Made by a program: the position numbers and the translations under genes. Shown here piece after piece: positions 14,839-51,557 of a DNA stretch of 64,000 nucleotides. The stretch is from positions 35,169,008 to 35,233,007 of the forward strand of contig JBOZIK010000001.1 in NCBI GenBank assembly GCA_051453625.1. Reading direction: 5' to 3'. The stretch's first letter is position 1. The number at the start of each line of letters is the position of its first letter. This DNA is from Welwitschia mirabilis (lineage: Eukaryota). The notes below the pieces were generated by a model. The model was not told the DNA's origin and ran no database searches. It worked only from the letters and a program-made list of their open reading frames with translations.

Positions 14839-16089
14839 TGTTCACATGTAAAATTTAACATTCAGACTAAGTATATTTGATAAATTTAGCTTAGTAAAAG
14901 ATATTAAATAGTTATTTCTATTATCAAATTATGTCTTCTATTATTTTATACATTATTTATAAAATTATGAACTTTCCCATAACAATTTCAAGATAATTGA
15001 AAACTAAAGAAAATTCAATAGGAAACATTAATGCTACCATATAGGTAATCAACACTACTATCTAAATCACTAGTGTCATTATCTTTTTAGAGCAGAATTT
15101 ATTCAAAGTTACATTCTAACATAGTTATGTAAAATTTATCACATTTTACTAATGGCATTAGTCATACATTATATCAAAAACAACAATCAACTTTAATGAT
15201 ATATGGGAAAAGTGAAAAGTGATATATGGTAGTGACATGTGGTAGTAACAAGTATGATGACATGAAACACACATGATAATAGCCTCTAGTGGTAATAGAA
15301 TCATCATCCAAAGGCCATATCATCACCACTGTTATAAGAGAAAAAAAGAATCCTTCTTAAATATACATGAGAAAATTTCTAACTTTTCTAATTGTAACTA
15401 CCAAAGTGTAATATTCACTTTTTATAACCTTCACTAATCACTACAAGCTAGAGGCTTATAACCTCTTAAAATCATTTTCTCTCTTATAAAGGGCCTTGAG
15501 ATTCCATTATAAAGTATATTTGATTAGGAAAAAAAAACATAGTGAAATACTTGGACTATCAAGATAATATGGTTTTCTGTGCACCTCTCTTAGGAGTGAA
15601 CTTATTTCAAGAATAGTTTGAGGCATTAATATAAGCTTCATTTTACTCCCTCAATGTAATGTATTTTCTTGGTCTAATTTAAGGGTGGTTGTTCATTCTT
15701 TGATTTTTAGTTCTCTAACTAGTATTTTTAATCCTTGGTGAGACTATTCCTTTTTTAATATAAAACATAGCTATTTATTTTTTTGATTACTAGTTCACAT
15801 ATATAGTACTTTTAATTCTTATATAAGACTATATTATCAAGTTATTTTGATGCCAAGTGAATTCTCTAAAGTTAAATTATTGGTTATAGTTTTTGTTATA
15901 TTATGGATATTATGTATAACTTTCCTTACTTTCTATGTTTATGAAGGGCTGTAAGAAATCAAAATGAAAATTGAATTCATCAAGACTTATTTGATCAATG
16001 AGATTATGTCAGATGAAATAAAGATGTGCTTTTGAACAAGTTAAGCTAAACCTTTGAAGCTTGTTTATTTATCTACATTACCAATCTAA
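14839..16089 (+). repeat. Athila-type LTR copy, 5' part (interrupted by the CACTA insertion)
   Basis: Direct repeat of 30610-32710, sharing for example AAAATTATGAACTTTCCCATAACAATTT and ACATGTGGTAGTAACAAGTATGA...ATCATCATCCAAAGGCCAT.TCATCACCA. Confidence 0.8.
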
Positions 16090-16102
16090 AGCTATAATAA
16101 AT

Positions 16103-16380
16103 AGAGGCTTTTGAGGCATTTATTTAAATAAATGTTTTAATTATATAGCATTATAAGGCGTTCATTTTAATAAATTCCTTAAATTATAATATTTTCAAGC
16201 CATTTTTGAAATAAATGCCCTAAAAGCCCATATCAAAGGTTTTTAATGCATTTGTAAAAAAAAGCTTTGAATGTTTCTGATCTTTTAAGGTGCTTACCAA
16301 ACAAACGCCATAAAAGCTATGATCTTTAAAGGCATTTAATAAGGCAAACTCCATAAAAGCTTGGTTTTTAAATAAAACGG
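16103..16380. repeat. Left subterminal repeat array of the CACTA element
   Basis: Multiple direct and inverted variants of TTTAAGGCGTTT/AAACGCCTTAAA, such as gaggcatt, taaggcgtt, aaatgccctaaaag, tttaaggtgctt, aaacgccataaaag and tttaaaggcattt. Confidence 0.85.
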
Positions 16381-17081
16381 TAGTAGCACGTTGCCAAAAA
16401 TAAAACCATCGCACCAAAAATGAAGCTAGATTTAATTTTTTCTGAGGTTTAGACCATTAATTTTAAACTTGAAAGTAAAAACCTAATCAGGGCTTTTCGG
16501 TAAGAAATTGATTAAAGATCTAAGGATAAATCAACCATAGGTCAAAAATTGAGTAAGAGAGGAGGAGAGAAGAGAGAAGAGATAGGATGAATCACAGGAA
16601 GTTCATGCACCTTCATCATGGATTGCTAAGTTTTCTTCCTTGAAAGAGAGCTAGCTAACATGAAGGCAAAGTCAAGCCTTTTTCGAAAGATGATCCATCA
16701 AAACCTTAAAATCTTACTACATTCTTAGGATATAAGTCTAGCTTGATACACATCATTTGAAAAGCTGAGAAGCCCAGATCTAGTAAGTGATCTAATATCT
16801 TAACCTTTATCTATTTATTTTGATTTTTTTAGATTTGAATTCAAAAATTGGTGCATTTTCCTATTCTTTAAATTGTTGAAATCACTTGAAAACTTGAATT
16901 GTTTCACTTTTTGATGGTTTATGTCAATGGATTATTAGAGTGCTAGTAAGATTTGTAAAGTGCTCTTACATCCTAAATTGATTGGTTTGTTTTTGACATT
17001 TTTAACTATCCAATTTACTGCCAAATAGAGGGATGAAATCTATGTTTTTTCATTTTAAGGATAAAAATTATAGAAATCTTT

Positions 17082-18966
17082 ATTAAAAAACAACCTAGGA
17101 AGATGATGAAAAACAACTAGGAAGACAATGAAAAATGATTTAAAAATGATCTTTTCAGTGACCCAATTCTGTAACAACTTCACTTACTATAAAATAAAAT
17201 AGGGAGATGATGAAAAAAAGGGGAGAAAACATACTAAGCTTCAAATCATAAAGGAAATCCAGATTGTAGGGCCTTGTTTGTATTTTATGTGAGTGTACTT
17301 TAAACATAACTCTCGTTGCAAGTTTCTACATTTAAATGCATTGTATGTTTTTGCAGAGGCAGAGAATGAGAACCTCATCTTGGTCACATCCCTATAAAGG
17401 CTTGAAATGGAGATTTTAAAGCTTTTAAAAGCTAAAAGAAGCACTCCCATTTCTATTACCACTCTACCTCAACTCTATTATGAAACTATGGTAGATCCTT
17501 ACACACTGAGGGTTATCTAACTAAGTCTCAGTGACATGGCAAGGCTAGATATAGTCCCAGTAAGCTTCTTGTTGCTTGAAGAACAATGTTGGTCTCATTG
17601 ATAGATAAGGATTGCTTTATTTTTTATTCAAAATTTAGGTAGATTATGTCTAAAAGATAATCATTTCTTGATTCCTTTTTAAATTTTCATTTCTCTGTAA
17701 AGTTTTAAGTTGTATATTTCATTGGCTATGGATCTGTGAAAGCCCTTTCACTGGATTCCTATAAAACATTAACATTGAGAGTAGTGAATCAATAAACTTA
17801 GTGCACCTTAAACCAACTCCAGTTGAAAACTTAAAGCTAGAAGATGGAGAAAGTTAGATTCAAAAAGTGAGGACATCACCTATGTTTGATCATGTATCTT
17901 ATGGGTGCATAAACTAAAAAGTCACTTAGGATGATTCTATCCATGGAGTATTGCTATATTATAGTTGTCAAAGATGGTTTTAGTTAGGTCTTTTACTCCC
18001 TTAATTGCTTTATATTTTTGGTGGTTGTAAAAGGTTAAGATGGAATATGTTGTGACATGTCTATCTGACAAGTTAGCAATACCTTAAAGAAACACTGTAA
18101 TGTAGGGTTTCTTTATTACAATAGGTCTATGCTACATTCTTAGGATTTTAGGATTCTTGAAAGTCTTGCCACACTGATAGCCAAATGACCACTTGTTCTT
18201 TATGAAGTCTATTAAGACTATCGTCATTTTAGTCATTTCCTCCTCTCTTCTAGTTTTAGGATTCCTAATGGTCTCTTAGACACATCAGATTCAGTAAAGA
18301 AAATTAATGTCACACTCTCCAAAAAGGGCCACCAGATACGAGTGCACTCTGAATGTTCCTAGAAAGCTACTGCAGATCCCTTGAAGCTGTTTGATGAGAT
18401 AAGACAGACCAATTGATCACTTGCTTTAGTCCATAGGCTTGCAAAGCCAACATAGCTTTTGTTATGTGGTTTAACAATTCTTGAGTTTGGATTGTTCTTC
18501 CTTGATTTTGGATCGTCCATGTTCATTTGACATTATTTAACCTTACCCAATTGTGTGTACACTATTTAACTCTTTTCTGACATTAAGAGGTATTAACAAT
18601 TTCATTATTTTGTTATTTGTATCAAAGGAAGAATTCCAAATAAAAATGAAAATGACATTTATACATTATCTCTGAATCAAGAATCATGGATGGTTAAGTG
18701 TTTTAAGAAATAGTCTTTAAATATAGTTATAAGAGCTTATAAGAATAAGATAAGATCTATAAGCTTTGTAATAACTCTAGTTAAGTTACCACATAAAACA
18801 TTTTAATTTATTTTTTATCATCTGAGTATGGTACCTTTCCATTTTTTTCATCATCTTCCTATTTCAATTTTCAATTAATGAAGTTGTTAAAGAATTGGGT
18901 CACTAAAAAGATCATTTTTCATCATCTCCTTGGATCATTTTTCTCATTTCCCTGGGTGATTTTAAT
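17082..18966. repeat. ~150-bp inverted repeat pair (17082-17238 and 18822-18966) inside the CACTA element
   Basis: Left arm: AAAAATGATCTTTTCAGTGACCCAATTCTGTAACAACTTCACTTACTATAAAATAAAATAGGGAGATGATGAAAAAAA. Reverse complement of the right arm: AAAAATGATCTTTTTAGTGACCCAATTCTTTAACAACTTCATTAATTGAAAATTGAAATAGGAAGATGATGAAAAAAA. Confidence 0.9.
17357..17604 (+). pseudogene. Captured exon of a CCCH zinc-finger protein of the C3H18 type (LOTUS/OST-HTH-like region), with stops and frameshifts
   Basis: It translates across 2 frameshifts to SL*RLEMEILKLLKAKRSTPISITTLPQLYYE/YGRSLHTEGYLTKSQ*HGKARYSPSKLLV/LKNNVGLIDR. This matches the recalled family motif SLEKLExEIxELLKxRRGxPISIASLPxxYYEKYGRxLQAEGYLTESQRHGKAGYSLTKLLARLKNxIRLIDR. 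An acceptor ttttgcag precedes 17357 and a decayed donor (ataagg) follows 17604. Confidence 0.88.
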
Positions 18967-19167
18967 GTTTCCCATGTAAAACATAAGTATCTAATATTCA
19001 AACTTCTCTCCCATGCTCTGTTTTACTAAAATTAATGTAATTGTCTATGGTCTTGTGCTGCACAAGTCTTATTAAATACTATCTGCAATATTTCAAAGGT
19101 GCTTCTGCTTTTTAATATTTTTTGTATAAAGAAGGCACAAAACATTAATGGTGCCACATTATTTCAA

Positions 19168-19455
19168 GATTGGCTAATCATAGGAATGTACTACATTTAT
19201 ATATAGGAGATGATCATATGGATGAAGATACATTTAAGGTTTGTTATTTACCTAATCAAGGCTAATGCTATTATAGATGATCATGTGATATTTAAAACAA
19301 ATGTACATGTTATGAGGTATTAAATTTTGTAGCCTCTAAATCATTAAATTTATTAGTAACATGTATTAAGAAATAAAGGTTAAGGATGTGAAACAATGGT
19401 GAGAACTATTTCAAAGAAAATTAATGCTACATTTTCACTCAGAGAACCATTTGAA
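19168..19455 (+). pseudogene. TPP: Captured two-exon fragment of trehalose-6-phosphate phosphatase (TPP, HAD family)
   Basis: Exon 19168-19238 (71 nt) reads GLANHRNVLHLYIGDDHMDEDTFK, compared with plant TPP G(F/L)xNxxDVLPIYIGDDRTDEDAFK. A GT donor at 19239 opens an intron to 19362. Exon 19363-19455 (93 nt) reads VLRNKG*GCETMVRTISKKINATFSLREPFE, compared with VLRxRGQGxGILVSxxPKETNAxYSLxEPxE. Confidence 0.88.
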
Positions 19456-20516
19456 ATACATAATTTTGATGGATTGTAGTCATTGACTTATTTTTTGATA
19501 ATTGAATTCCATGCATATATTATCTTCTTCTGTTAAAATATTCCACTTTAAAGGTAACAGCAGGAGTTTATTTTCAATGAGACATTGAAAACTAAAATCT
19601 TGAACTATAATATCCAATATTATTTATTGTTTTTAATGTGCATGGAATTCAAGGGCACTTTGTATTATTATCCTTGAGCTTTATTAGGTTTTTAGTCTTA
19701 GTCGCATGATTTGTGTGGAAGAGGCTGAAACTTTTAGGCTTCATGATACTCCATAAATTGGATGTTGAATTTTCCTCATCCATAAACAATTTTGAAAGTA
19801 GAACTGTGAGGTTCTTTGCCATCTAAAATTTATCCTTTAAGATTATACAAAATAAAGAGTCTTGCATTACATGAGAAAATGTAACTTGGAAAGGTTGAAA
19901 AAATTCAGTGCTATTTTAAGTTAGTATGGAAAGCATAAGAAAACCATGCAATGCTACATATGGTGCCTCTTGTCTAAAGACACATCCACTTGAAAATAAT
20001 TCCATATAAAAATAGGAATATATAAAGAAGGACATAAATATGATATTCATTAGATTTTGCATCATCCACAAGGCACTAATAAGTAAGTAAGACTTTTAGT
20101 AGTCTAAAATAAAGATACTAGTCTTAACACAAGTTCTAAGAATCAATTTAATGACTTATCAATGATCAAAGCATATTATAGAAATTTTTAATTGAATAAG
20201 GCTTAGAGTATTTGATATCTAAGCTATTAAATTTTTCTTGAAAAATAGGAACATAGAGAGCAAGATGGACAAAGGTTATAAAAACTTAACATCTAAACCT
20301 CAAGAGATCAATAACATAGAGACAGGTTACAAAAGCAAACAGGCACAAAGGAAAAGATCACAAACAAACAAATATAAAAAATTCAAGTGAAGTATCTTTC
20401 ACTCAACACCAATAAAATAATACATAAAACACGATTGCAAGCTATAAATGAAATTATCAATCTAAATCAACTATAAATATTCTTGGTACTTATAGGAAAT
20501 ATAATGAAAAGTAATG

Positions 20517-21116
20517 CTACTTTACTAAAGCACCCACCTCAAACCTTACTTTAATCATGAATTGAAGATGCACTTGTAATAGTAAAATCATTTACAAGTA
20601 TTCAAAGCTCTTTTTTGATGCTCCTACAACTAAAATGTAAAAATAGTTTTGGAGTTTTAGGTGGCACCTTACTTGGGATCATACACAACATATTCATATA
20701 TCTTCATTGGGCTCTGGTCATGACTAGAAGAGATGAATGAATCATATGATACTTTTATCTCATCTTTCTAAGTGAAATATTCTTTTGGATCTGACATTTT
20801 CTTCCCCAATCCCATTGCTACTACTTTCTCATATTTCATCCTCACTATGTACTACTGAGTAACAAATTTATAGGATATTCAATAGTGTTCATTGTCTAAA
20901 CACTAAAAAAATGAGTATAGCTTATATCAGATTTTGGAAAAAATGTTAGAACAATCATTAACAGAATACCATGGGAGCTTTAAACATCTCAAGGATAGGC
21001 TTCTCTATAAGTTCCACAGCTAGAAGCATCAGAAAATATTCTTTTCTATTCACTATAGTAAATTCATAATTTGCTACCATCGAAGCTGCATTAGTGTAGT
21101 ATATCCCCTTTCCAAT
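20517..21116 (-). pseudogene. Captured three-exon C-terminal fragment of a poly(ADP-ribose) polymerase catalytic domain, PARP3-like
   Basis: Minus-strand exon 21116-20970 reads IGKGIYYTNAASMVANYEFTIVNRKEYFLMLLAVELIEKPILEMFKAPM and is followed by a GT donor. Exon ~20851-20669 reads YIVRMKYEKVVAMGLGKKMSDPKEYFT*KDEIKVSYDSFISSSHDQSPMKIYEYVVYDPK*. Exon 20573-20517 reads VHLQFMIKVRFEVGALVK-stop. These match recalled plant PARP3 motifs YGFTAVDR, GLGRKKT..W.DDIKVPCG..SEH.DSPLEYNEYAVYDPKQ. Confidence 0.87.
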
Positions 21117-21369
21117 TCATTCATTTTTCCTTGTCTCATGAGATCCACCAATATACTTTTTAGAATTTCATCTATGCTTTTTTCTTTCTTATATAAAACT
21201 TTTTTGACTTTTTAATTATAATTTTAGAAGTTACTTCCTACATAAAAATATATGGGTATCTTTGTTAGCATTGAAATAGACCACTAGATATCCCTATTTC
21301 TTGAAATAACTTTGTTTATTGGGTATTGCTCTTATTTTATCATTAATATTTTTTATTAATTGCAACATA

Positions 21370-21582
21370 AGAGTTTTAGGATACAAAGGATAACCAATTG
21401 ATGAATTGGCTGAGAGAAGCACACATGCTAAAGTGGCTTATCTTTTTGTGTATGGATACTTGCCTTCATGGTCATAGTTAGCATAATGGTAATTTGCTAT
21501 ATCTTAGTATTTAGCTCTCCTTGAAGGATTACTAAAATTTATACAAGTAATGCCACATGATTTTCATCCCATGAGTATGCTA
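21370..21582 (+). pseudogene. CSY: Captured fragment of peroxisomal/glyoxysomal citrate synthase, multiple stops
   Basis: 71 ungapped codons read RVLGYKG*PIDELAERSTHAKVAYLFVYGYLPSWS*LA*W*FAIS*YLALLEGLLKFIQVMPHDFHPMSML. They are colinear with recalled plant peroxisomal citrate synthase [71 protein letters not shown]. Confidence 0.92.
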
Positions 21583-21789
21583 TACCCTACTAGCTATGAT
21601 TGCTACACTTCCTCTAAAGCAGCGGTTCTTCTAACATATTTTACCATTAAGAAAGATTTATTTCCTTAGTTATTGATTCATCAGTTTAGTAAGATCCATG
21701 GCAAGAGCATTTTATGAGATGATACTTCAATTGAGAATAAACTAAAAGTAGGACAAAGTGATAACAGAGATGCTTAGCACATTTTCTAA

Positions 21790-22430
21790 TGAGATGATGA
21801 ATTTCATTATGAAAACTACAAGATTAAACTTTCATATGATAAAAAATTTGTTAAACTTGTGGAATATATAGAGGAAAAATTAAAGCAATTGAGCACCCAA
21901 ATTGCATATTTGAAAGATTTGTTGGTGCCTCAATACATTAGTTTTTGGGCATGGGAGAAAGAGGGAAGAGTTAGTGCTTCTTCATAGGAGACAATGGCCA
22001 ATCCTAAAGAAAACATTATACATAATAACAATGCTACTAAAGGTTTTAATCATTACAATGAGCTTATTGAGGATCCTAAAATCTTAACCACTGTAAGTGA
22101 TTATGGTTTTATTACAAGAGATAATAGTAGAATTCTCTTGGAGATAAAGGATTTATTTAGATATTTACTTTAATGTTGTTAAAATAAAGGCATCTAGATC
22201 ATCCACTAAAATAAGTCAAGAAAATTTCAACATAGAAATGTATCTGCTTATAAGAAACTACAATTAATTGGAGTTATACTAAAAACTTACATACCTTCTA
22301 GAATTTGGTCAACATTTTCATATCATGGAGAACCTATGTAACATAAAGCTAAATGTTTTGACACTCCTGAAATGTTAGGAAATTGTACTAGTAGTTTGGT
22401 GGCCTAAAAAGATCTTTATGTTGAAACACA
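21790..22430 (+). pseudogene. Possible remnant of the CACTA second ORF (TnpA/Tnp1-like) C-terminus
   Basis: A coiled-coil-like block (KFVKLVEYIEEKLKQLSTQIAYLKDLL, ~21845-21925) is followed after a putative intron by ...TPEMLGNCTSSLVA*KDLYV (~22360-22425). The latter resembles the xLGDAxGxxVAW ending of En/Spm TnpA-type proteins. Weak, motif-only evidence. Confidence 0.4.
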
Positions 22431-25400
22431 CTTTGCAGACTATACAATCAAAAATAGGAGGGCTTGCTTATGGAGATGATATCTAGACTTGTTTATTTTT
22501 CATATGTTTATTAAAACCATTAGTATTTGAGGTCCATCTCTTAGCATGCGTTTTATTTTAATCTTAAAAACTCTCAATGTAAAGAATAAGACATATTTTA
22601 TATCTTTTACAAATTTTATTGGAATTCAAATAAAGGGAATATAAGTTATTAATATTCATTTCTCACAGTTCAAGATGTCTTATAAAACTTTGCTAGAACA
22701 CTCATTTAAAAAACATGAAATGAATAAATTACCTAGCTAGGCAGAAGATGTCATGTCACTTGTAGGTTCTATGAAGCTATTACTGAAGTTTTTGAAAAAT
22801 CATCAAAAGTAAAATGCTTTGCTAATAAACATGCTACTCATAAATAGCCATGCAATGGCTCTTCAATAACTATTAATGAAAATGGCTCTCCAACTACTAC
22901 TTTATTGATTCAAATCATTCTGTGTTTCCANNNNNNNNNNNNNNNNNNNNNNNNNNNNNNNNNNNNNNNNNNNNNNNNNNNNNNNNNNNNNNNNNNNNNN
23001 NNNNNNNNNNNNNNNNNNNNNNNNNNNNNNNNNNNNNNNNNNNTCTTAGAATTTTAAGAACTCCCTTGTTTCTTTAAATAGCTTTATTTATTCTCACACT
23101 AACCTCCATACAATATCCTCCACATCTTTTTATGTTTTCCTTTACAATACTCCTACACATTTTTAGCATGATCTGACAGTAGCTAACTAGGACTAGAAAA
23201 TAAAATAGGCTATTTCAAGAAATTTTTTTAATATATAAGTATTGCATTAAGGGAAAATAAGAGATGCTATTATGTAATACAAATAAGAAGATGCTAATCT
23301 CATAAGCTAGAGGAGAAGACACGACTCTCTATAATGGAGGAGGACATAATCATAATATGATGTCCAATAAAACCAAAGGTATGGTTATCTACAAGGAACA
23401 TTGGTAAAAAAGGGAGCATTTAAAAATTTATCCATGCCAAAGATGGATTGTAGTACTATAGACTAAGTCTTATTATTAGAAAACTTTGAGGATGAAGGCA
23501 TTAAGTTTATAGTGTTTAAATCTGAGATTAAATTTTAAGTAGTTCTTAGGACAAGTGATTAAGACATTCTTAATCATTCAATAAGTATAGCACTAGGAGA
23601 GAGTTCTTGTAAGTTGAAATTTTTACAAATTTTCAAAATTCATCATTCCTGTTATGTTTTATAGCATGTGTCATGATAGAGGAGCCAAGCTGCAAGCAGT
23701 AAATAGATAACATCTACAAGTATCTAGCATAAGATGTTTAGCAACTACATTAAAACTTAATAATTGAAATCTAAAAGAACTACTTTAAGAAAATTACTTC
23801 TATGATTGATTTGTAAGTGATGGTAGATGTAAGTTATTTATAAGTAATTGTAACTTACATACATTACATATATCAATAGTGTAATAAATCCAATCACCTC
23901 TAAAAAAGGCTGTAAGAACTCTTGTCCCTAAATTAGTGAATACCTCTCCAGAAGGGTTTCAAGTTTCAATATCCTTTCACAATGATAAAGCTTGAGATAA
24001 ACTAAAGTATTATCTTCCTTTAAATACAAATGATTTTCTTTTGAGATAGTTTCCTAATTTGGCCATGAGACAATGAAAGCAAGGGTGGTTATTTCATTTT
24101 TTATTTTATACTCTAATTTCATGATAGCTTCATCATCATATATTTCTATAGAAAATTATGCTAAAATATTAAGGATANNNNNNNNNNNNNNNNNNNNNNN
24201 NNNNNNNNNNNNNNNNNNNNNNNNNNNNNNNNNATTTCTACTGCTGAACCAAATCTTAAATCTGCTCATTAATCGAATTTTGAATGATAAAATGCTTTGA
24301 GCTTGATTGTCCTTTGCTTTTGGTGGATCTTTTTCCATTTTATGTCCTTTCTTTTTACCATTCCAAATAAATAAGACACACATTCAGCATGTTATATGAC
24401 AATAAACATGTTTGATATATTTACTTAAAAATACTAAACATAATCCAATAATGATTGTAATTGTTAATTTAAGTTGTTTAATTATGAATATAGCAAAGTC
24501 CAATGTGACACTCTATGTGGTTCCCTAGTTCACATCCCATTTGCATGCCATTACTTTCATTTAGTATTTCTTTTTTTCTATCCCTAATAATTATTTCCTT
24601 TTTCTCTCTCTTATGAAGAATTTGTACATGATTTCTAATCCTCTTTTCACTAGTCTTATATCTATGCTAGCTCATCTGTCTTAAGGATTTAATTATTACC
24701 TCTTTGAAGTGGATTTGTAGATCTTATTATATTTTATAAAGTTTAATTGAGAATTTTGCCAATCCTACACCAAAAGCTAAAAGGAGTAAACCTATCTATT
24801 TAATGTCTATGCATTTTCGAGCATATAAACCTTCATTTTCATACACAGAATGCATGGAAATTTGATGAAACCATTAAAATGCTTTTTGTGGGTCATATTT
24901 CTTAAAGCAATATATTTTTTATTCTTAAAACTAAGCTTATAATGGAGATGGTAATGCTAAAGTATAGCCCTAGCTATGTAGATTGGTAATTGAATATCAT
25001 TGTGTTCTGACTCTTCTAGAGGTGCTAGAGGTTGGAATTGATATAAAAGATGAGTCAAACTCTCTAACACATCATAGCTCTAAAGCCAACCTTACTAAAG
25101 AACTAATTTACAACTCACCTTTGGATAGTAGTTCTAATTAAAATAATGCTTTTCTTCTACTGGGCTGATTTAATGTGAAACAAATTTTGGTCATCCTCCA
25201 TGAAATTTAGTGTAAAAAAAAATTTTGATATATGATAATATGATATGATCTTTTACTTATTTCATTTTTCTCTCATATGATATTTATGATCAGGTCTTAG
25301 TTTTAATTGATAATGTTTAATCATTCAAAGATTTTTTGAAATTTCTTTTTCAATGTCAATTCTAAAACTTTAACATGCATTTTTAAATTTCAATGCATTC

Positions 25401-25654
25401 CTCTTAACTTTTTGAAAGGAACCGAGTTTAGAAGATAAGCAGACCACTACATTAGGGCTTTTTGGAGTAAGGTGAAAAGAATTCTCTTCTATCTCTTTAT
25501 GAATTATATATGGTTATGTTTTGTTTCTCTATACAAATCAAAATTGATTATGGTCATAATGCTACTTCTATATTCATGATTTATGTATTTGGGTTTTTAT
25601 CACCTTCATATAGCAAAATCTTCTTTCTAGTGTTTTTTTTAAAAGAAGCTAAAT

Positions 25655-26051
25655 TGTTTGAGGCATGTATTTGGTAAAATGCCACAAAACGGATTTGAAG
25701 GCATTTACATAATAAATCACCTTAAAATCCTTCTAAAACTTATTTGGGGCATGTTATTAGAGAAATGCCTTAAAAGCTACTTTAAGGTGTTTTATATAGA
25801 AATGCCTCAAAATTCCTATTAAGGCATTTATCTAGTGAAGTTCCTCAAAAGGGCTTTTAAGAAATTCATTTAGAAAATGCCTTAAAACACAGTTTAAGGC
25901 ATTCTTATCTAGACGCCTTATAAATACCTTAAGAGCATATAGGCTTTTAAGGCATGGCTTGTTAAGGCCTTTTGTGAAGAAACACCTTAAAAGTATTTAA
26001 GGCATTTTTTAGTGCTTTTTAAATTGTTTTAGAAATGCATTAAAAGCCTAT
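25655..26051. repeat. Right subterminal repeat array of the CACTA element
   Basis: More than 15 alternating-orientation variants, including aaatgccttaaaag, tttaaggtgttt, aaatgcctcaaaa, ttaaggcattt, agacgcctta, aacaccttaaaag and tttaaggcattttt. Confidence 0.88.
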
Positions 26052-26064
26052 AATTCTTCTAGTA

Positions 26065-26255
26065 TAAGTTTAACAACAAATCCCAAACTTAATTTTCTTT
26101 TGTTTCAGTTTCATCATAGGATTGAAATACGTGTATTACTTCTATTTACTTATATTCAAATTATCCCTATGGAGGAACTATATAGTTGCTTACTTGGTCT
26201 TTATTAACATCTACCTTTATACTATAATAAATAAATTTTTAGTAAATAGATATTA
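26065..26255 (+). repeat. Athila-type LTR copy, 3' remainder after the CACTA insertion
   Basis: Colinear with 32708-32910: aaatcccaaactt/aaatctcaaactt, ataggatt, and ttattaacatctacctttatacta/ttattgatatttacctttatatta. Confidence 0.78.
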
Positions 26256-27163
26256 GCACTATTATATCTCTAATAATCTATTTATGACATGATCAATTAC
26301 ATCAAGGTTATAAAAAATCATCAGCAATACAATACTATTTTCTTTATAAAATAACATGATTAATTCTATTAGAAGAAAAGTTTGTAACATTGGATACTAA
26401 ATTTGATCTAAGGTCTTAAAATAAAGAGCATGTGTAATTATTGAAAAGGTAAATATTGAAAATAAAATGTTGGATTTGGAGATACTTTTGTAATTACTTT
26501 TTTTAACTTATGTATTTGAAAATTTGTTTACTAATTTTTGAATTTTTATATATTAACTTAAAGAATAATTTTTTCTCCTAGCATTCTAATCCATTTTTAA
26601 AAAATNNNNNNNNNNNNNNNNNNNNNNNNNNNNNNNNNNNNNNNNNNNNNNNNNNNNNNNNNNNNNNNNNNNNNNNNNNNNNNNNNNNNNNNNNNNNNNN
26701 NNNNNNNNNNNNNNNNNNNNNNNNNNNNNNNNNNNNNNNNNNNNNNNNNNNNNNNNNNNNNNNNNNNNNNNNNNNNNNNNNNNNNNNNNNNNNNNNNNNN
26801 NNNNNNNNNNNNNNNNNNNNNNNNNNNNNNNNNNNNNNNNNNNNNNNNNNNNNNNNNNNNNNNNNNNNNNNNNNNNNNNNNNNNNNNNNNNNNNNNNNNN
26901 NNNNNNNNNNNNNNNNNNNNNNNNNNNNNNNNNNNNNNNNNNNNNNNNNNNNNNNNNNNNNNNNNNNNNNNNNNNNNNNNNNNNNNNNNNNNNNNNNNNN
27001 NNNNNNNNNNNNNNNNNNNNNNNNNNNNNNNNNNNNNNNNNNNNNNNNNNNNNNNNNNNNNNNNNNNNNNNNNNNNNNNNNNNNNNNNNNNNNNNNNNNN
27101 NNNNNNNNNNNNNNNNNNNNNNNNNNNNNNNNNNNNNNNNNNNNNNNNNNNNNNNNNNNNCTT

Positions 27164-30576: not shown

Positions 30577-32910
30577 TACTAAGAAATTGGTAAATGTTTA
30601 GTTAAGGGTGCATTTACATGCAAAAATTAAAATTCAAACTAAGTATATGTAATTAATTTATCTTAGGCAAAGATAATCAATAATCATTTTTATCACAAAA
30701 TTATGTCTTCTACCATTTTATATGTTATTTTTAAAATTATGAACTTTCCCATAACAATTTTAGATTAATTTTTGCCTTCTCAAAGACATGTTAAAAATTG
30801 AAGAAAATCCAAAAGAAAATGTTGATGTTACTATATAAACAATTAATGCTATCAGTGTTTTAGATCAGAATTGGTGTATTATGAAATTCATTACATTCCT
30901 CTTATAGACTTAGTAAGACATTAAATTAAACATCATGATTAAATTCTATTATACATGGCAGAGGTGCAAATTGACATGTGATAATAACATGTGGTAGTAA
31001 CAAGTATGAGGATATGGAAGACCGATGGCAATATCATCTAGTAGTAATAGCATCATCATCCAAAGGCCATGTCATCACCAATTTCACGAGAAAATAAATA
31101 ATTCTTTTGAAAATTGCATCGCAAAAGTTGTAACCTCCATAATTATAACCACCCAAAGTATAACCTTTTCTTTTTGTAACTAATACTAATCACTAAAAGT
31201 CAAAGGCTTGTAACCTTATTCAATTCTTCCCTTACTTATAATAGAGCCTTGTCTTCCATTATGAAGTATCTTTTATTGGAGTAAAACATAGTGAAATATT
31301 TTGAGCATTAGGTTAACATGACTTTTTAAGCACCTTTGTTGGTAGTAGACCTATCCTGAGACTAGTTCAAGGAGTTTGTATTAGCTTCATCTTTCTCATT
31401 TAATGTAATGTATTTTCCTCATTTACTTCTAGGGTGGTTGTTCATTATTTTATTTTAGTGTATGTAATTAGTACTTTTAATCCTTGAATAATATTATTCC
31501 TTNNNNNNNNNNNNNNNNNNNNNNNNNNNNNNNNNNNNNNNNNNNNNNNNNNNNNNNNNNNNNNNNNNNNNNNNNNNNNNNNNNNNNNNNNNNNNNNNNN
31601 NNNNNNNNNNNNNNNNNNNNNNNNNNNNNNNNNNNNNNNNNNNNNNNNNNNNNNNNNNNNNNNNNNNNNNNNNNNNNNNNNNNNNNNNNNNNNNNNNNNN
31701 NNNNNNNNNNNNNNNNNNNNNNNNNNNNNNNNNNNNNNNNNNNNNNNNNNNNNNNNNNNNNNNNNNNNNNNNNNNNNNNNNNNNNNNNNNNNNNNNNNNN
31801 NNNNNNNNNNNNNNNNNNNNNNNNNNNNNNNNNNNNNNNNNNNNNNNNNNNNNNNNNNNNNNNNNNNNNNNNNNNNNNNNNNNNNNNNNNNNNNNNNNNN
31901 NNNNNNNNNNNNNNNNNNNNNNNNNNNNNNNNNNNNNNNNNNNNNNNNNNNNNNNNNNNNNNNNNNNNNNNNNNNNNNNNNNNNNNNNNNNNNNNNNNNN
32001 NNNNNNNNNNNNNNNNNNNNNNNNNNNNNNNNNNNNNNNNNNNNNNNNNNNNNNNNNNNNNNNNNNNNNNNNNNNNNNNNNNNNNNNNNNNNNNNNNNNN
32101 NNNNNNNNNNNNNNNNNNNNNNNNNNNNNNNNNNNNNNNNNNNNNNNNNNNNNNNNNNNNNNNNNNNNNNNNNNNNNNNNNNNNNNNNNNNNNNNNNNNN
32201 NNNNNNNNNNNNNNNNNNNNNNNNNNNNNNNNNNNNNNNNNNNNNNNNNNNNNNNNNNNNNNNNNNNNNNNNNNNNNNNNNNNNNNNNNNNNNNNNNNNN
32301 NNNNNNNNNNNNNNNNNNNNNNNNNNNNNNNNNNNNNNNNNNNNNNNAGATATTGCATGTAATCAGTACTTATAATCCTTAAGTGAGTCTACATTGTTAA
32401 GTTCTTTTGATATGGAGTGAATTTTATAAAGTTAAGTTATGAGTTATAGTTACTTTTATATTATATGTTTTAAGTATAATTGTCCTTACTTTTTATGTTT
32501 ATGAAGGAATATGAAGAATCGAGATGACATTTAAATTCACCAACATTCATGTGATGAATGATATTACATCACCACACTTAAGCCATCATGACTTAGTAAT
32601 TTGAGCTTATGTTTTAGGAATTACAGGATATTATTAGAGTTCAGATATGGTATTGGATAAGTTAATCTAAATCTTTGAATCTTGTTTAATTTCTTACATC
32701 ACCCATCTAAGTTCCTCGAAAAAAAAATCTCAAACTTTAATTTATTTTATTCTAATTTTATTATAGGATTAAATAATTGTGTTACTCTTTTTTAAGTTTT
32801 ATCCTAAGTATTCCTATGAAATAACAATAGTAGGTTCTCATTTGGTTTTTATTGATATTTACCTTTATATTACAACTAATAGACTTTTAGCAAATAATAA
32901 AGCATATCAA
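30577..32910 (+). mobile_element. Athila-type PPT plus 3' LTR (uninterrupted paralog of 14839-26255), contains an 846-N gap
   Basis: A decayed Athila-like pre-LTR motif ttactaagaaattggtaaatgtttagttaagggtg lies at ~30577-30610. The sequence after it is homologous to the 14.8-16.1 kb and 26.07-26.25 kb pieces and ends ...gcatatca near 32908. Confidence 0.72.
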
Positions 32911-50545: not shown

Positions 50546-51557
50546 TANNNNNNNNNNNNNNNNNNNNNNNNNNNNNNNNNNNNNNNNNNNNNNNNNNNNN
50601 NNNNNNNNNNNNNNNNNNNNNNNNNNNNNNNNNNNNNNNNNNNNNNNNNNNNNNNNNNNNNNNNNNNNNNNNNNNNNNNNNNNNNNNNNNNNNNNNNNNN
50701 NNNNNNNNNNNNNNNNNNNNNNNNNNNNNNNNNNNNNNNNNNNNNNNNNNNNNNNNNNNNNNNNNNNNNNNNNNNNNNNNNNNNNNNNNNNNNNNNNNNN
50801 NNNNNNNNNNNNNNNNNNNNNNNNNNNNNNNNNNNNNNNNNNNNNNNNNNNNNNNNNNNNNNNNNNNNNNNNNNNNNNNNNNNNNNNNNNNNNNNNNNNN
50901 NNNNNNNNNNNNNNNNNNNNNNNNNNNNNNNNNNNNNNNNNNNNNNNNNNNNNNNNNNNNNNNNNNNNNNNNNNNNNNNNNNNNNNNNNNNNNNNNNNNN
51001 NNNNNNNNNNNNNNNNNNNNNNNNNNNNNNNNNNNNNNNNNNNNNNNNNNNNNNNNNNNNNNNNNNNNNNNNNNNNNNNNNNNNNNNNNNNNNNNNNNNN
51101 NNNNNNNNNNNNNNNNNNNNNNNNNNNNNNNNNNNNNNNNNNNNNNNNNNNNNNNNNNNNNNNNNNNNNNNNNNNNNNNNNNNNNNNNNNNNNNNNNNNN
51201 NNNNNNNNNNNNNNNNNNNNNNNNNNNNNNNNNNNNNNNNNNNNNNNNNNNNNNNNNNNNNNNNNNNNNNNNNNNNNNNNNNNNNNNNNNNNNNNNNNNN
51301 NNNNNNNNNNNNNNNNNNNNNNNNNNNNNNNNNNNNNNNNNNNNNNNNNNNNNTCTTAATACATTCACATGTCTATGAACTTTACTTTAAAGAAATATGC
51401 TTTGGTTCTTGCATTTTTTTCAATGCTATGAGGTCTTTGATTATTTAGGATTTCTTTTTTTTTTGTCTTTTATCTCACTTCTTCACTTTTGTGTTTTTAA
51501 GTGTGTAATCATGTGGGAATTATTTATGTATCAAAAAAGAAAGAAAAATAAAAAATA

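Follow-up and report, generated by a model that had tools for sequence, protein, structure and literature searches.

The subject of this work is a segment of ~10 kb (positions 16090-26064) within a stretch of 64,000 nucleotides of the Welwitschia mirabilis genome (assembly GCA_051453625.1, contig JBOZIK010000001.1, positions 35,169,008 to 35,233,007 of the forward strand), which we refer to as the window. The segment is probably one old, non-autonomous CACTA (En/Spm)-type transposon of the Pack-CACTA kind, i.e. an element that carries pieces of several host genes. We favor this reading because the segment has terminal inverted repeats (TIRs), a 3-bp target site duplication (TSD) and subterminal repeats but no transposase, because its ends belong to a high-copy terminal family whose other copies appear to read CA+CTA at the left end, and because it contains exon fragments that have expressed donors elsewhere. 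An earlier examination of the same DNA (the sequence-only reading) had described a non-autonomous CACTA-type carrier of fragments of several unrelated host genes, and this core holds; overall that reading is partly confirmed, as its observations were largely right and its main interpretation was right, while it overstated the novelty of the element.

The cargo is arranged in the following order: the 5' end of the ribosomal protein L3 gene RPL3 (+), an OST-HTH/C3H18-like fragment (+), a trehalose-phosphate phosphatase (TPP) fragment (+), PARP fragments (-), a citrate synthase (CSY) fragment of the peroxisomal type (+) and ~3.5 kb to which no gene is assigned. That the cargo derives from at least four or five unrelated host genes is largely confirmed, and we take it to consist of genomic, intron-containing pieces. 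Stops and frameshifts abound in all of it. We regard the insertion as an old one, a fossil, since TIRs and cargo are decayed, stops are found throughout, and the insertion is present in both organisms examined and in a second sample of one of them.

Termini, target site duplication and subterminal repeats

The window consists of A+T-rich plant DNA with a GC content of 16-32% per 2 kb, and the element, with 27-31%, lies slightly above its flanks. The ends given by the sequence-only reading can be read exactly off the sequence, and so can the decayed TIRs and the TAA duplication that it had reported. At the left junction a TAA (16087-16089) is followed by AGCTATAAT, and the element start after this TAA reads AGCTATAATAAATAGAGGC. 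At the right junction TTCTAGTA extends up to 26064, the element end reads GCCTATAATTCTTCTAGTA, and a second TAA follows directly (26065-26067). The direct repeat thus has the 3-bp length of the CACTA superfamily (TAA/TAA); by our own arithmetic, a 3-nt match of this kind has a chance of ~0.03 at the local base composition.

The TIRs are 34 nt long and imperfect. The 5' TIR (16090-16123, + strand) starts with AGCTA, a decayed CACTA, and agrees in 25/34 positions with the reverse complement of the 3' TIR (26031-26064, - strand), which ends with TAGTA, a decayed TAGTG. Compared to the terminal pentamers CACTA...TAGTG, this copy retains 3/5 and 4/5 positions, respectively. Only one other match of at least 20/28 was found in the 64 kb, at 25928, inside the right end and in direct orientation, and 20 one-strand shuffles gave 1 TIR-level match in total. 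The additional string (25928-25955, 20/28) is positioned in the right subterminal region in the orientation of the left end, and may be the relic of a second family member that became fused. A complete small element at 25636-26064 was also considered and ruled out, as its flanks are unlike (AGA vs TAA).

Both ends contain arrays of subterminal repeats in direct and inverted orientation, as is typical of CACTA elements and as had been proposed earlier. The 14-nt motif AAATGCCTTAAAAG, with at most 2 mismatches, has 18 matches in the window, counting both strands, of which 5 are located at 16108-16337, 10 at 25693-26046 and only 3 elsewhere (15/18 in the two ends). The count expected by chance is 2.06, and none of 100 shuffles attained 18. 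The subterminal regions contain the repeat families D1-D5. The 5' region (16100-16372) has its 5 motif matches on both strands, families D3/D7 and a 42-nt tandem array of 2.3 copies (16278-16372), and the 3' region (25640-26030) has its 10 matches on both strands and families D1/D2 with a spacing of 37-38 nt.

No transposase family was detected by Pfam at E<=1 in the six read-through frames of the element, in agreement with the sequence-only reading and as expected of a non-autonomous member. A PIF/Harbinger assignment, raised by the TAA duplication, was rejected: no DDE_Tnp_4 or Myb-like family was found in the six frames, and the subterminal arrays and the CA+CTA terminus suggested for other copies favor CACTA.

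The terminal family in two genomes

Contig sets of two organisms (X2 and X5) were aligned to the window in a single pass at 80% or higher likeness. The locus itself is nearly unchanged in both sets (a 798-nt contig with 2 differences, a 596-nt contig with 0), and the insertion is present in both organisms; a further sample from organism A contains it as well (share 0.29). The ends of the element are far more abundant than the locus. The summed contig depth (X2/X5) of the bins that are wholly subterminal is 666/427 at 16161-16547 and 579/510 at 25449-25835, as compared to ~7-8 for single contigs of the locus and 14-180 in the interior of the element. The terminal bins (4962/2957 and 2214/3069) take in repetitive flank and were not used as a measure of copy number.

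A pile-up at the left end is informative with respect to the terminal sequence of the family. As many as 216 (X2) and 148 (X5) contigs start matching exactly at 16092, and the consensus that precedes this point ends with ...TTCA in both sets, meaning that the other copies would read CA + CTATAA..., i.e. CACTA, where the present copy has AG. The agreement of the consensus is low (mean 0.41-0.43), as expected, because flanks differ among copies. The CACTA terminus of the other copies is suggestive rather than proven.

Some contigs join the left end to the right end (16125>25800, 16142>25970 and 16174>25962, the last with 29 other letters in between), which points to many short members of the family that are devoid of cargo. 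The terminal family is a high-copy one that is dominated by short members resembling miniature inverted-repeat transposable elements (MITE-like). The deep subterminal bins and the end-joining contigs, found in two genomes, also show that the element is not a singleton, which is one of the properties used by packFinder (as quoted in PMC8903248). The other properties of a Pack-TYPE element in the packFinder sense are likewise present: the segment is bounded by TIRs and a TSD, lacks a transposase and has coding matches (Ribosomal_L3, Citrate_synt, PARP and, weakly, Trehalose_PPase).

Captured gene fragments

The Pfam search covered all six frames of the element, 145 stop-to-stop open reading frames (ORFs) of at least 28 aa and a few read-through pieces. 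RNA reads were taken from two runs (X14 and X17, about a quarter of each read, 80% likeness or more). They fall only on gene-fragment blocks, and the strongest islands are the RPL3 and CSY blocks.

One fragment had not been listed by the sequence-only reading. Just inside the 5' end and facing inwards is the start-codon exon of RPL3 together with upstream DNA and the beginning of intron 1. Exon 1 (16587-16783, +) extends from Met1 to about residue 66 with 4 in-frame stops, and its Ribosomal_L3 match (16587-16790, +, profile 1-66 from the Met) has an E value of 6.5e-16 (2.5e-13 in the six-frame scan). The preceding DNA (16432-16586, +) is probably RPL3 upstream or 5' untranslated sequence captured with the exon. 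A 509-nt paralogous contig, ~84% alike, covers 16432-16932 in both genomes and represents either the donor or a sibling copy. The protein match ends where the intron-1 remnant (16784-16932, +) begins, and a GTAAGT-like string follows. At 16780, 77 (X14) and 75 (X17) RNA reads depart from the window and go on in coding-looking sequence, which, judged by eye, we take to be the next RPL3 residues. The exon-1/intron-1 boundary is thus retained, which indicates that genomic DNA, not cDNA, was captured. The RNA depth over 16548-16934 is ~30-38.

The citrate synthase block (21319-21714, +) is contained in one frame with several stops and is of the peroxisomal type by best match, as proposed earlier. 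Its Pfam Citrate_synt match (~21322-21585, +) has an E value of 2e-9, and its best PDB matches are 8qzp_A (1.9e-19) and 9x0i_A, "Citrate synthase 3, peroxisomal" (3.5e-19). The block aligns to residues 65-153 of 9x0i_A and over up to 131 residues with 2p2w_A. These 89-131 residues lie in a single, intron-less frame, and the block may stem from a retro-copy or from genomic DNA. The RNA depth is 10-40 over the block and 1-40 over 21192-21965; an RNA loose end at 21374 resembles local divergence, not a splice site.

The PARP fragments on the minus strand were also confirmed, in the form of two pieces of the catalytic domain that have adjacent profile ranges and are collinear on the DNA. One is an exon at 20961-21116 (Pfam PARP, E 3.5e-5, profile 84-127), the other comprises the C-terminal exon or exons with downstream sequence at 20617-20893 (E 1.5e-5, profile 124-186, match 20672-20893). 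RNA loose ends are found at 20617 and 20850, 85 X17 reads depart at 21115, and the depth over 20418-21191 is 7-19. The C-terminal piece had no match at 0.01 in a phmmer search of PDB. The sequence-only reading had spoken of three PARP3-like exons, and the assignment to this subfamily is putative.

Two TPP exons had been proposed, of which the first is recovered weakly and the second is not. The first (19149-19262, +) matches Trehalose_PPase over profile positions 175-202 of 235 with an E value of 0.0042. As the result of an open search this value is not significant; as the test of one family named in advance it is much stronger, i.e. ~2.5e-5 by our own arithmetic (0.0042/24736 per ORF x 145). 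In PDB (phmmer) the piece found only chance matches to NLRP5 leucine-rich repeats (0.015-0.026), and in a word-based homologue search the 47-aa piece shared three words with no protein. The candidate second, C-terminal exon (19384-19476, +) lies in an RNA-positive bin and has no Pfam match; it may resemble TPP. The RNA depth over 18870-19643 is 3-5.

The identity of the C3H18-like exon could not be confirmed in the form in which it was proposed. The fragment or fragments at 17271-17621 (+; C3H18-like exon at 17398-17621) are frameshifted and coincide with an RNA island that has a loose end of 51 reads at 17271. No Pfam match was found, including for the OST-HTH piece B, and frame +3 of 17352-19280, which holds both the C3H18-like and the TPP pieces, had 0 matches at E<=0.001 among 1.84 billion protein representatives. 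Frame +3 of 17001-20600 gave only a chance match (E 2) in a phmmer search of PDB. Among the named Atlas clusters, those of OST-HTH/LOTUS proteins come closest (0.84), under the lead threshold of 0.9, so that this identity is a lead only. Plant proteins annotated as C3H18-like presumably carry an OST-HTH/LOTUS domain. Further along, an exon block at 17850-18095 is homologous to an expressed gene (RNA depth ~6-8 in the bin 17709-18095, no family match), and it could represent an RRM exon that belongs to this C3H18-like gene. Within it, at 17889, 7 nt are missing from 19/25 (X14) and 14/27 (X17) reads. The RNA depth over the whole region 16935-18095 is 2-15. Between the two blocks there is a 30-aa ORF (17672-17761, +) with a marginal similarity to IBR_2 (Pfam E 6.8e-4, one of the 145 ORFs); this RBR E3-ligase-like ORF may be a further captured exon or a chance match.

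The C3H18-like region is bracketed by an internal inverted repeat, the left arm of which is located at 17079-17225 and the right arm at 18835-18963. The arms are ~140 nt long and 72-86% complementary, with a core (17142-17222 vs 18839-18919) of 86% over 81 nt, and both have the same layout of 22-nt sub-repeats. They enclose exactly the RNA-supported C3H18-like exons (17271-18095), RPL3 and TPP being outside. We saw no flanking duplication at any of the plausible ends of the arms of the inner block (17079-18963), so that the 9-bp TSD of a Pack-MULE (a gene-carrying Mutator-like element) is not seen here.

The remaining interior, ~3.5 kb at 21966-25448 with two runs of N, had been thought to contain further exon-like blocks beyond 21.97 kb. 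We found no family match there (no Pfam value below 0.03) and no RNA support over 21966-25061; its paralogous contigs are 86-89% alike. More generally, interior segments without exon support have paralogous contigs that are 82-89% alike (e.g. 17963-18816, 21669-22192, 23829-24419 and 24628-25257), which may represent sibling elements, introns of the donors or repeats of another kind.

Origin of the RNA reads

Outside the blocks the RNA depth is at most 0.2 at 18096-18869 and at most 0.22 at 21966-25061, and no reads fall on 19644-20417. Even the reads that fall on the blocks are not derived from this copy to any visible extent. Among the 1216 reads of X14 and the 974 of X17, none in either run reaches a likeness of 99%, 20 and 0 fall in the range of 95-99%, and 1069/1216 and 798/974, respectively, are below 90%. 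Given this low likeness, the reads stem from diverged, expressed donor genes elsewhere. In the reads examined, this copy is without transcription of its own and looks silent. No donor was seen in the rest of the window either: a blastn comparison of the cargo to the other 54 kb gave 0 matches at 1e-3, and with tblastn no E value was better than 0.23. The diverged RNA reads and the lack of a paralogue in the window are what packFinder expects of cargo taken from host genes elsewhere.

Alternative explanations

There are several points that weigh against a single Pack-CACTA. Neither end reads CACTA in this copy (AGCTA and TACTA), and the CA of the other copies comes from a 30-letter loose-end consensus with the low mean agreement given above (0.41-0.43). 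Neither a second full-length copy with this cargo nor an empty site was demonstrated. The flanks on either side consist of high-copy repeats, with depths of 782/619 at 15000-15386 and 1938/2257 at 26223-26600. With respect to the cargo, TPP is represented by one weak Pfam match, while five plainly spurious families appear at E 0.019-0.21 among the same 145 ORFs, the C3H18 identity is without alignment support, and 169 interior bases are N (22931-23043 and 24178-24233). Finally, two separate insertions are conceivable in view of the TIR-like string at 25928 and of the many short family members, and the inner inverted repeat around the C3H18-like exons suggests that part of the cargo may come from nesting.

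The first of these last two possibilities is that two independent members, or broken ends, of the abundant MITE-like CACTA family happen to lie ~9.5 kb apart, the interior never having been mobilised as a unit and being at most "pre-Pack", a configuration that has been proposed as the initial stage of cargo acquisition. The short, cargo-less members revealed by the end-to-end joints, the direct orientation of the string within the right end and the lack of a demonstrated second copy of the composite would all fit, and PMC6379663 describes Pack-TYPE elements that have deletion derivatives as neighbours on their flanks. We nevertheless find this explanation unlikely. The TAA duplication is common to the two outer ends, which also have the correct inverted orientation. 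Neither end region contains a recognisable partner terminus; an inverted match at 16194-16233 does not run on into a terminal sequence, and in front of the candidate left end at ~25636 there is AGA and not TAA. In addition, one would not expect ordinary intergenic DNA to form a mosaic of pieces of unrelated genes on both strands.

The second possibility accepts the outer element as real and attributes much of its gene content to nested gene-carrying transposons, such as a Pack-MULE-like unit at 17079-18963, Helitrons or other fragments. It would account for the long arms with their common sub-repeat layout around the C3H18-like exons, for the position of RPL3 and TPP outside these arms, and for the paralogues of the exon-free interior segments in both genomes. 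It appears improbable to us all the same, as the arm ends show no TSD, the arms are best conserved towards the inside and not at their termini, the six frames contain no protein domain of a MULE, hAT or Helitron, and the RPL3, TPP, PARP and CSY fragments are not bracketed in this way.

That no transposon is involved at all, i.e. that the segment is a decayed segmental duplication or pseudogene cluster with chance inverted similarity at its edges, is hardly credible: the termini are indeed decayed and short matches are easy to obtain in a genome with 75% A+T, but the motif count was not reached in any of the 100 shuffles and a TIR-level match arose once in 20, the left end is the starting point of hundreds of contigs, the subterminal bins are deep, and five unrelated gene families are represented by isolated partial exons on both strands, with no donors nearby.

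Mechanism and comparison with known elements

By analogy with the CACTA superfamily, the Pack-CACTA proposed here would have been mobilised in trans by the TnpD/TnpA-type transposase of an autonomous relative. This enzyme would bind the subterminal repeats and cut at the TIRs, and the insertion of the element would have duplicated the TAA. The cargo may have been acquired when DNA between neighbouring insertions of the same family was re-mobilised from the outer ends, according to the model outlined in the cited parts of PMC6379663 and PMC8903248.

It is tempting to ask whether the element still shows how it grew. We speculate that it keeps intermediates of Pack-TYPE growth, namely an inner inverted-repeat gene block that was nested or swallowed, a relic terminus at 25928 from the fusion of two neighbours, and an RPL3 promoter with exon 1 that faces three fragments on the same strand. 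Taken jointly these suggestions are improbable. If they were true, the young element would have driven a constitutive chimeric RPL3-C3H18-TPP transcript, and, should siblings with intact frames exist elsewhere in the genome, it would represent a natural cassette for exon shuffling that brings along a strong promoter.

It is useful to compare the element to Pack-TYPE transposons already described. Firstly, Tgm-Express1 of soybean (Zabala & Vodkin) is also a non-autonomous CACTA element with inverted-repeat ends and intronic as well as exonic pieces of about five unrelated host genes. It is unlike our element in its size of 5.7 kb, its recent activity, its position in an F3H intron and the splicing of its fragments into chimeric transcripts, as far as the cited part of the report goes (PMC1947982). 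The present element is ~10 kb long, heavily decayed, located in repeat-rich DNA and without RNA reads at 99% likeness or above in two runs; the two were compared by description. Secondly, the Pack-CACTAs of Arabidopsis and maize have, like this one, CACTA-derived termini, a 3-bp TSD, no transposase and a cargo from several loci with a partly untraceable interior, and in Arabidopsis the cargo includes DNA of untraceable origin, according to the portions cited (PMC6379663, PMC8903248). The Arabidopsis elements differ in that their 26-bp termini are conserved and start with CACTACAA, and in that their movement was observed, as stated in the cited text (PMC6379663). The element studied here has mutated termini (AGCTA / TACTA) and a presumed mobility, and its family consists mostly of short MITE-like members. 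Thirdly, the Pack-MULEs of rice, maize and Arabidopsis also capture gene fragments, and the inner block at 17079-18963 has long inverted arms reminiscent of them. Pack-MULEs have long TIRs and 9-bp TSDs in the sections cited, in contrast to the short TIRs and 3-bp TSD of the outer element, and for the inner block no TSD was found (PMC6379663, PMC1947982).

The claim of the sequence-only reading that the element is unusually cargo-rich does not stand in this light, since Tgm-Express1 contains five host gene fragments in 5.7 kb (PMC1947982, in the part cited) and maize Pack-CACTAs often contain several loci (PMC8903248, likewise). Serial capture and an undescribed family, which it also put forward, are conjectures. 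Multi-gene Pack-CACTAs, their splicing into chimeric RNAs and the capture mechanism are already in print, and no new question is opened. The element is a further data point on the cargo capacity of CACTA elements and a clean, dissectable case of exon shuffling by a transposon in a plant genome rich in A+T, where pieces of five unrelated genes, one with a start codon and probably a promoter, would be held between CACTA-type ends. It is also of value for annotation, as such elements are miscalled as pseudogenes or overlooked entirely.

Other features of the window

A near-open frame at 21793-22170 (+) consists of two adjoining ORFs in one frame, 126 codons with one stop. It has no Pfam family, and none of its 218 word-sharing candidates reached E<=1. 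It is probably due to chance in A+T-rich DNA, since by our own estimate ~6 ORFs of this length are expected per 10 kb. An Rfam search over 15000-27000 gave zero matches, and the five ORFs of 90 aa or more in other parts of the window are all without a Pfam family. The window as a whole contains 13 runs of N with 4409 bases (e.g. 703-1530, 26606-27160, 31503-32347 and 50548-51353), and the long ORFs called across such runs are artefacts.

The element sits amid repeat-rich DNA of other families. The flanks at 15000-15386, 15774-16011 and 26065-26600 are high-copy in the two genomes (summed depth 600-2300), and they have break points of their own, with 113/111 contigs ending at 16011 and 66/67 at 26312-26314.

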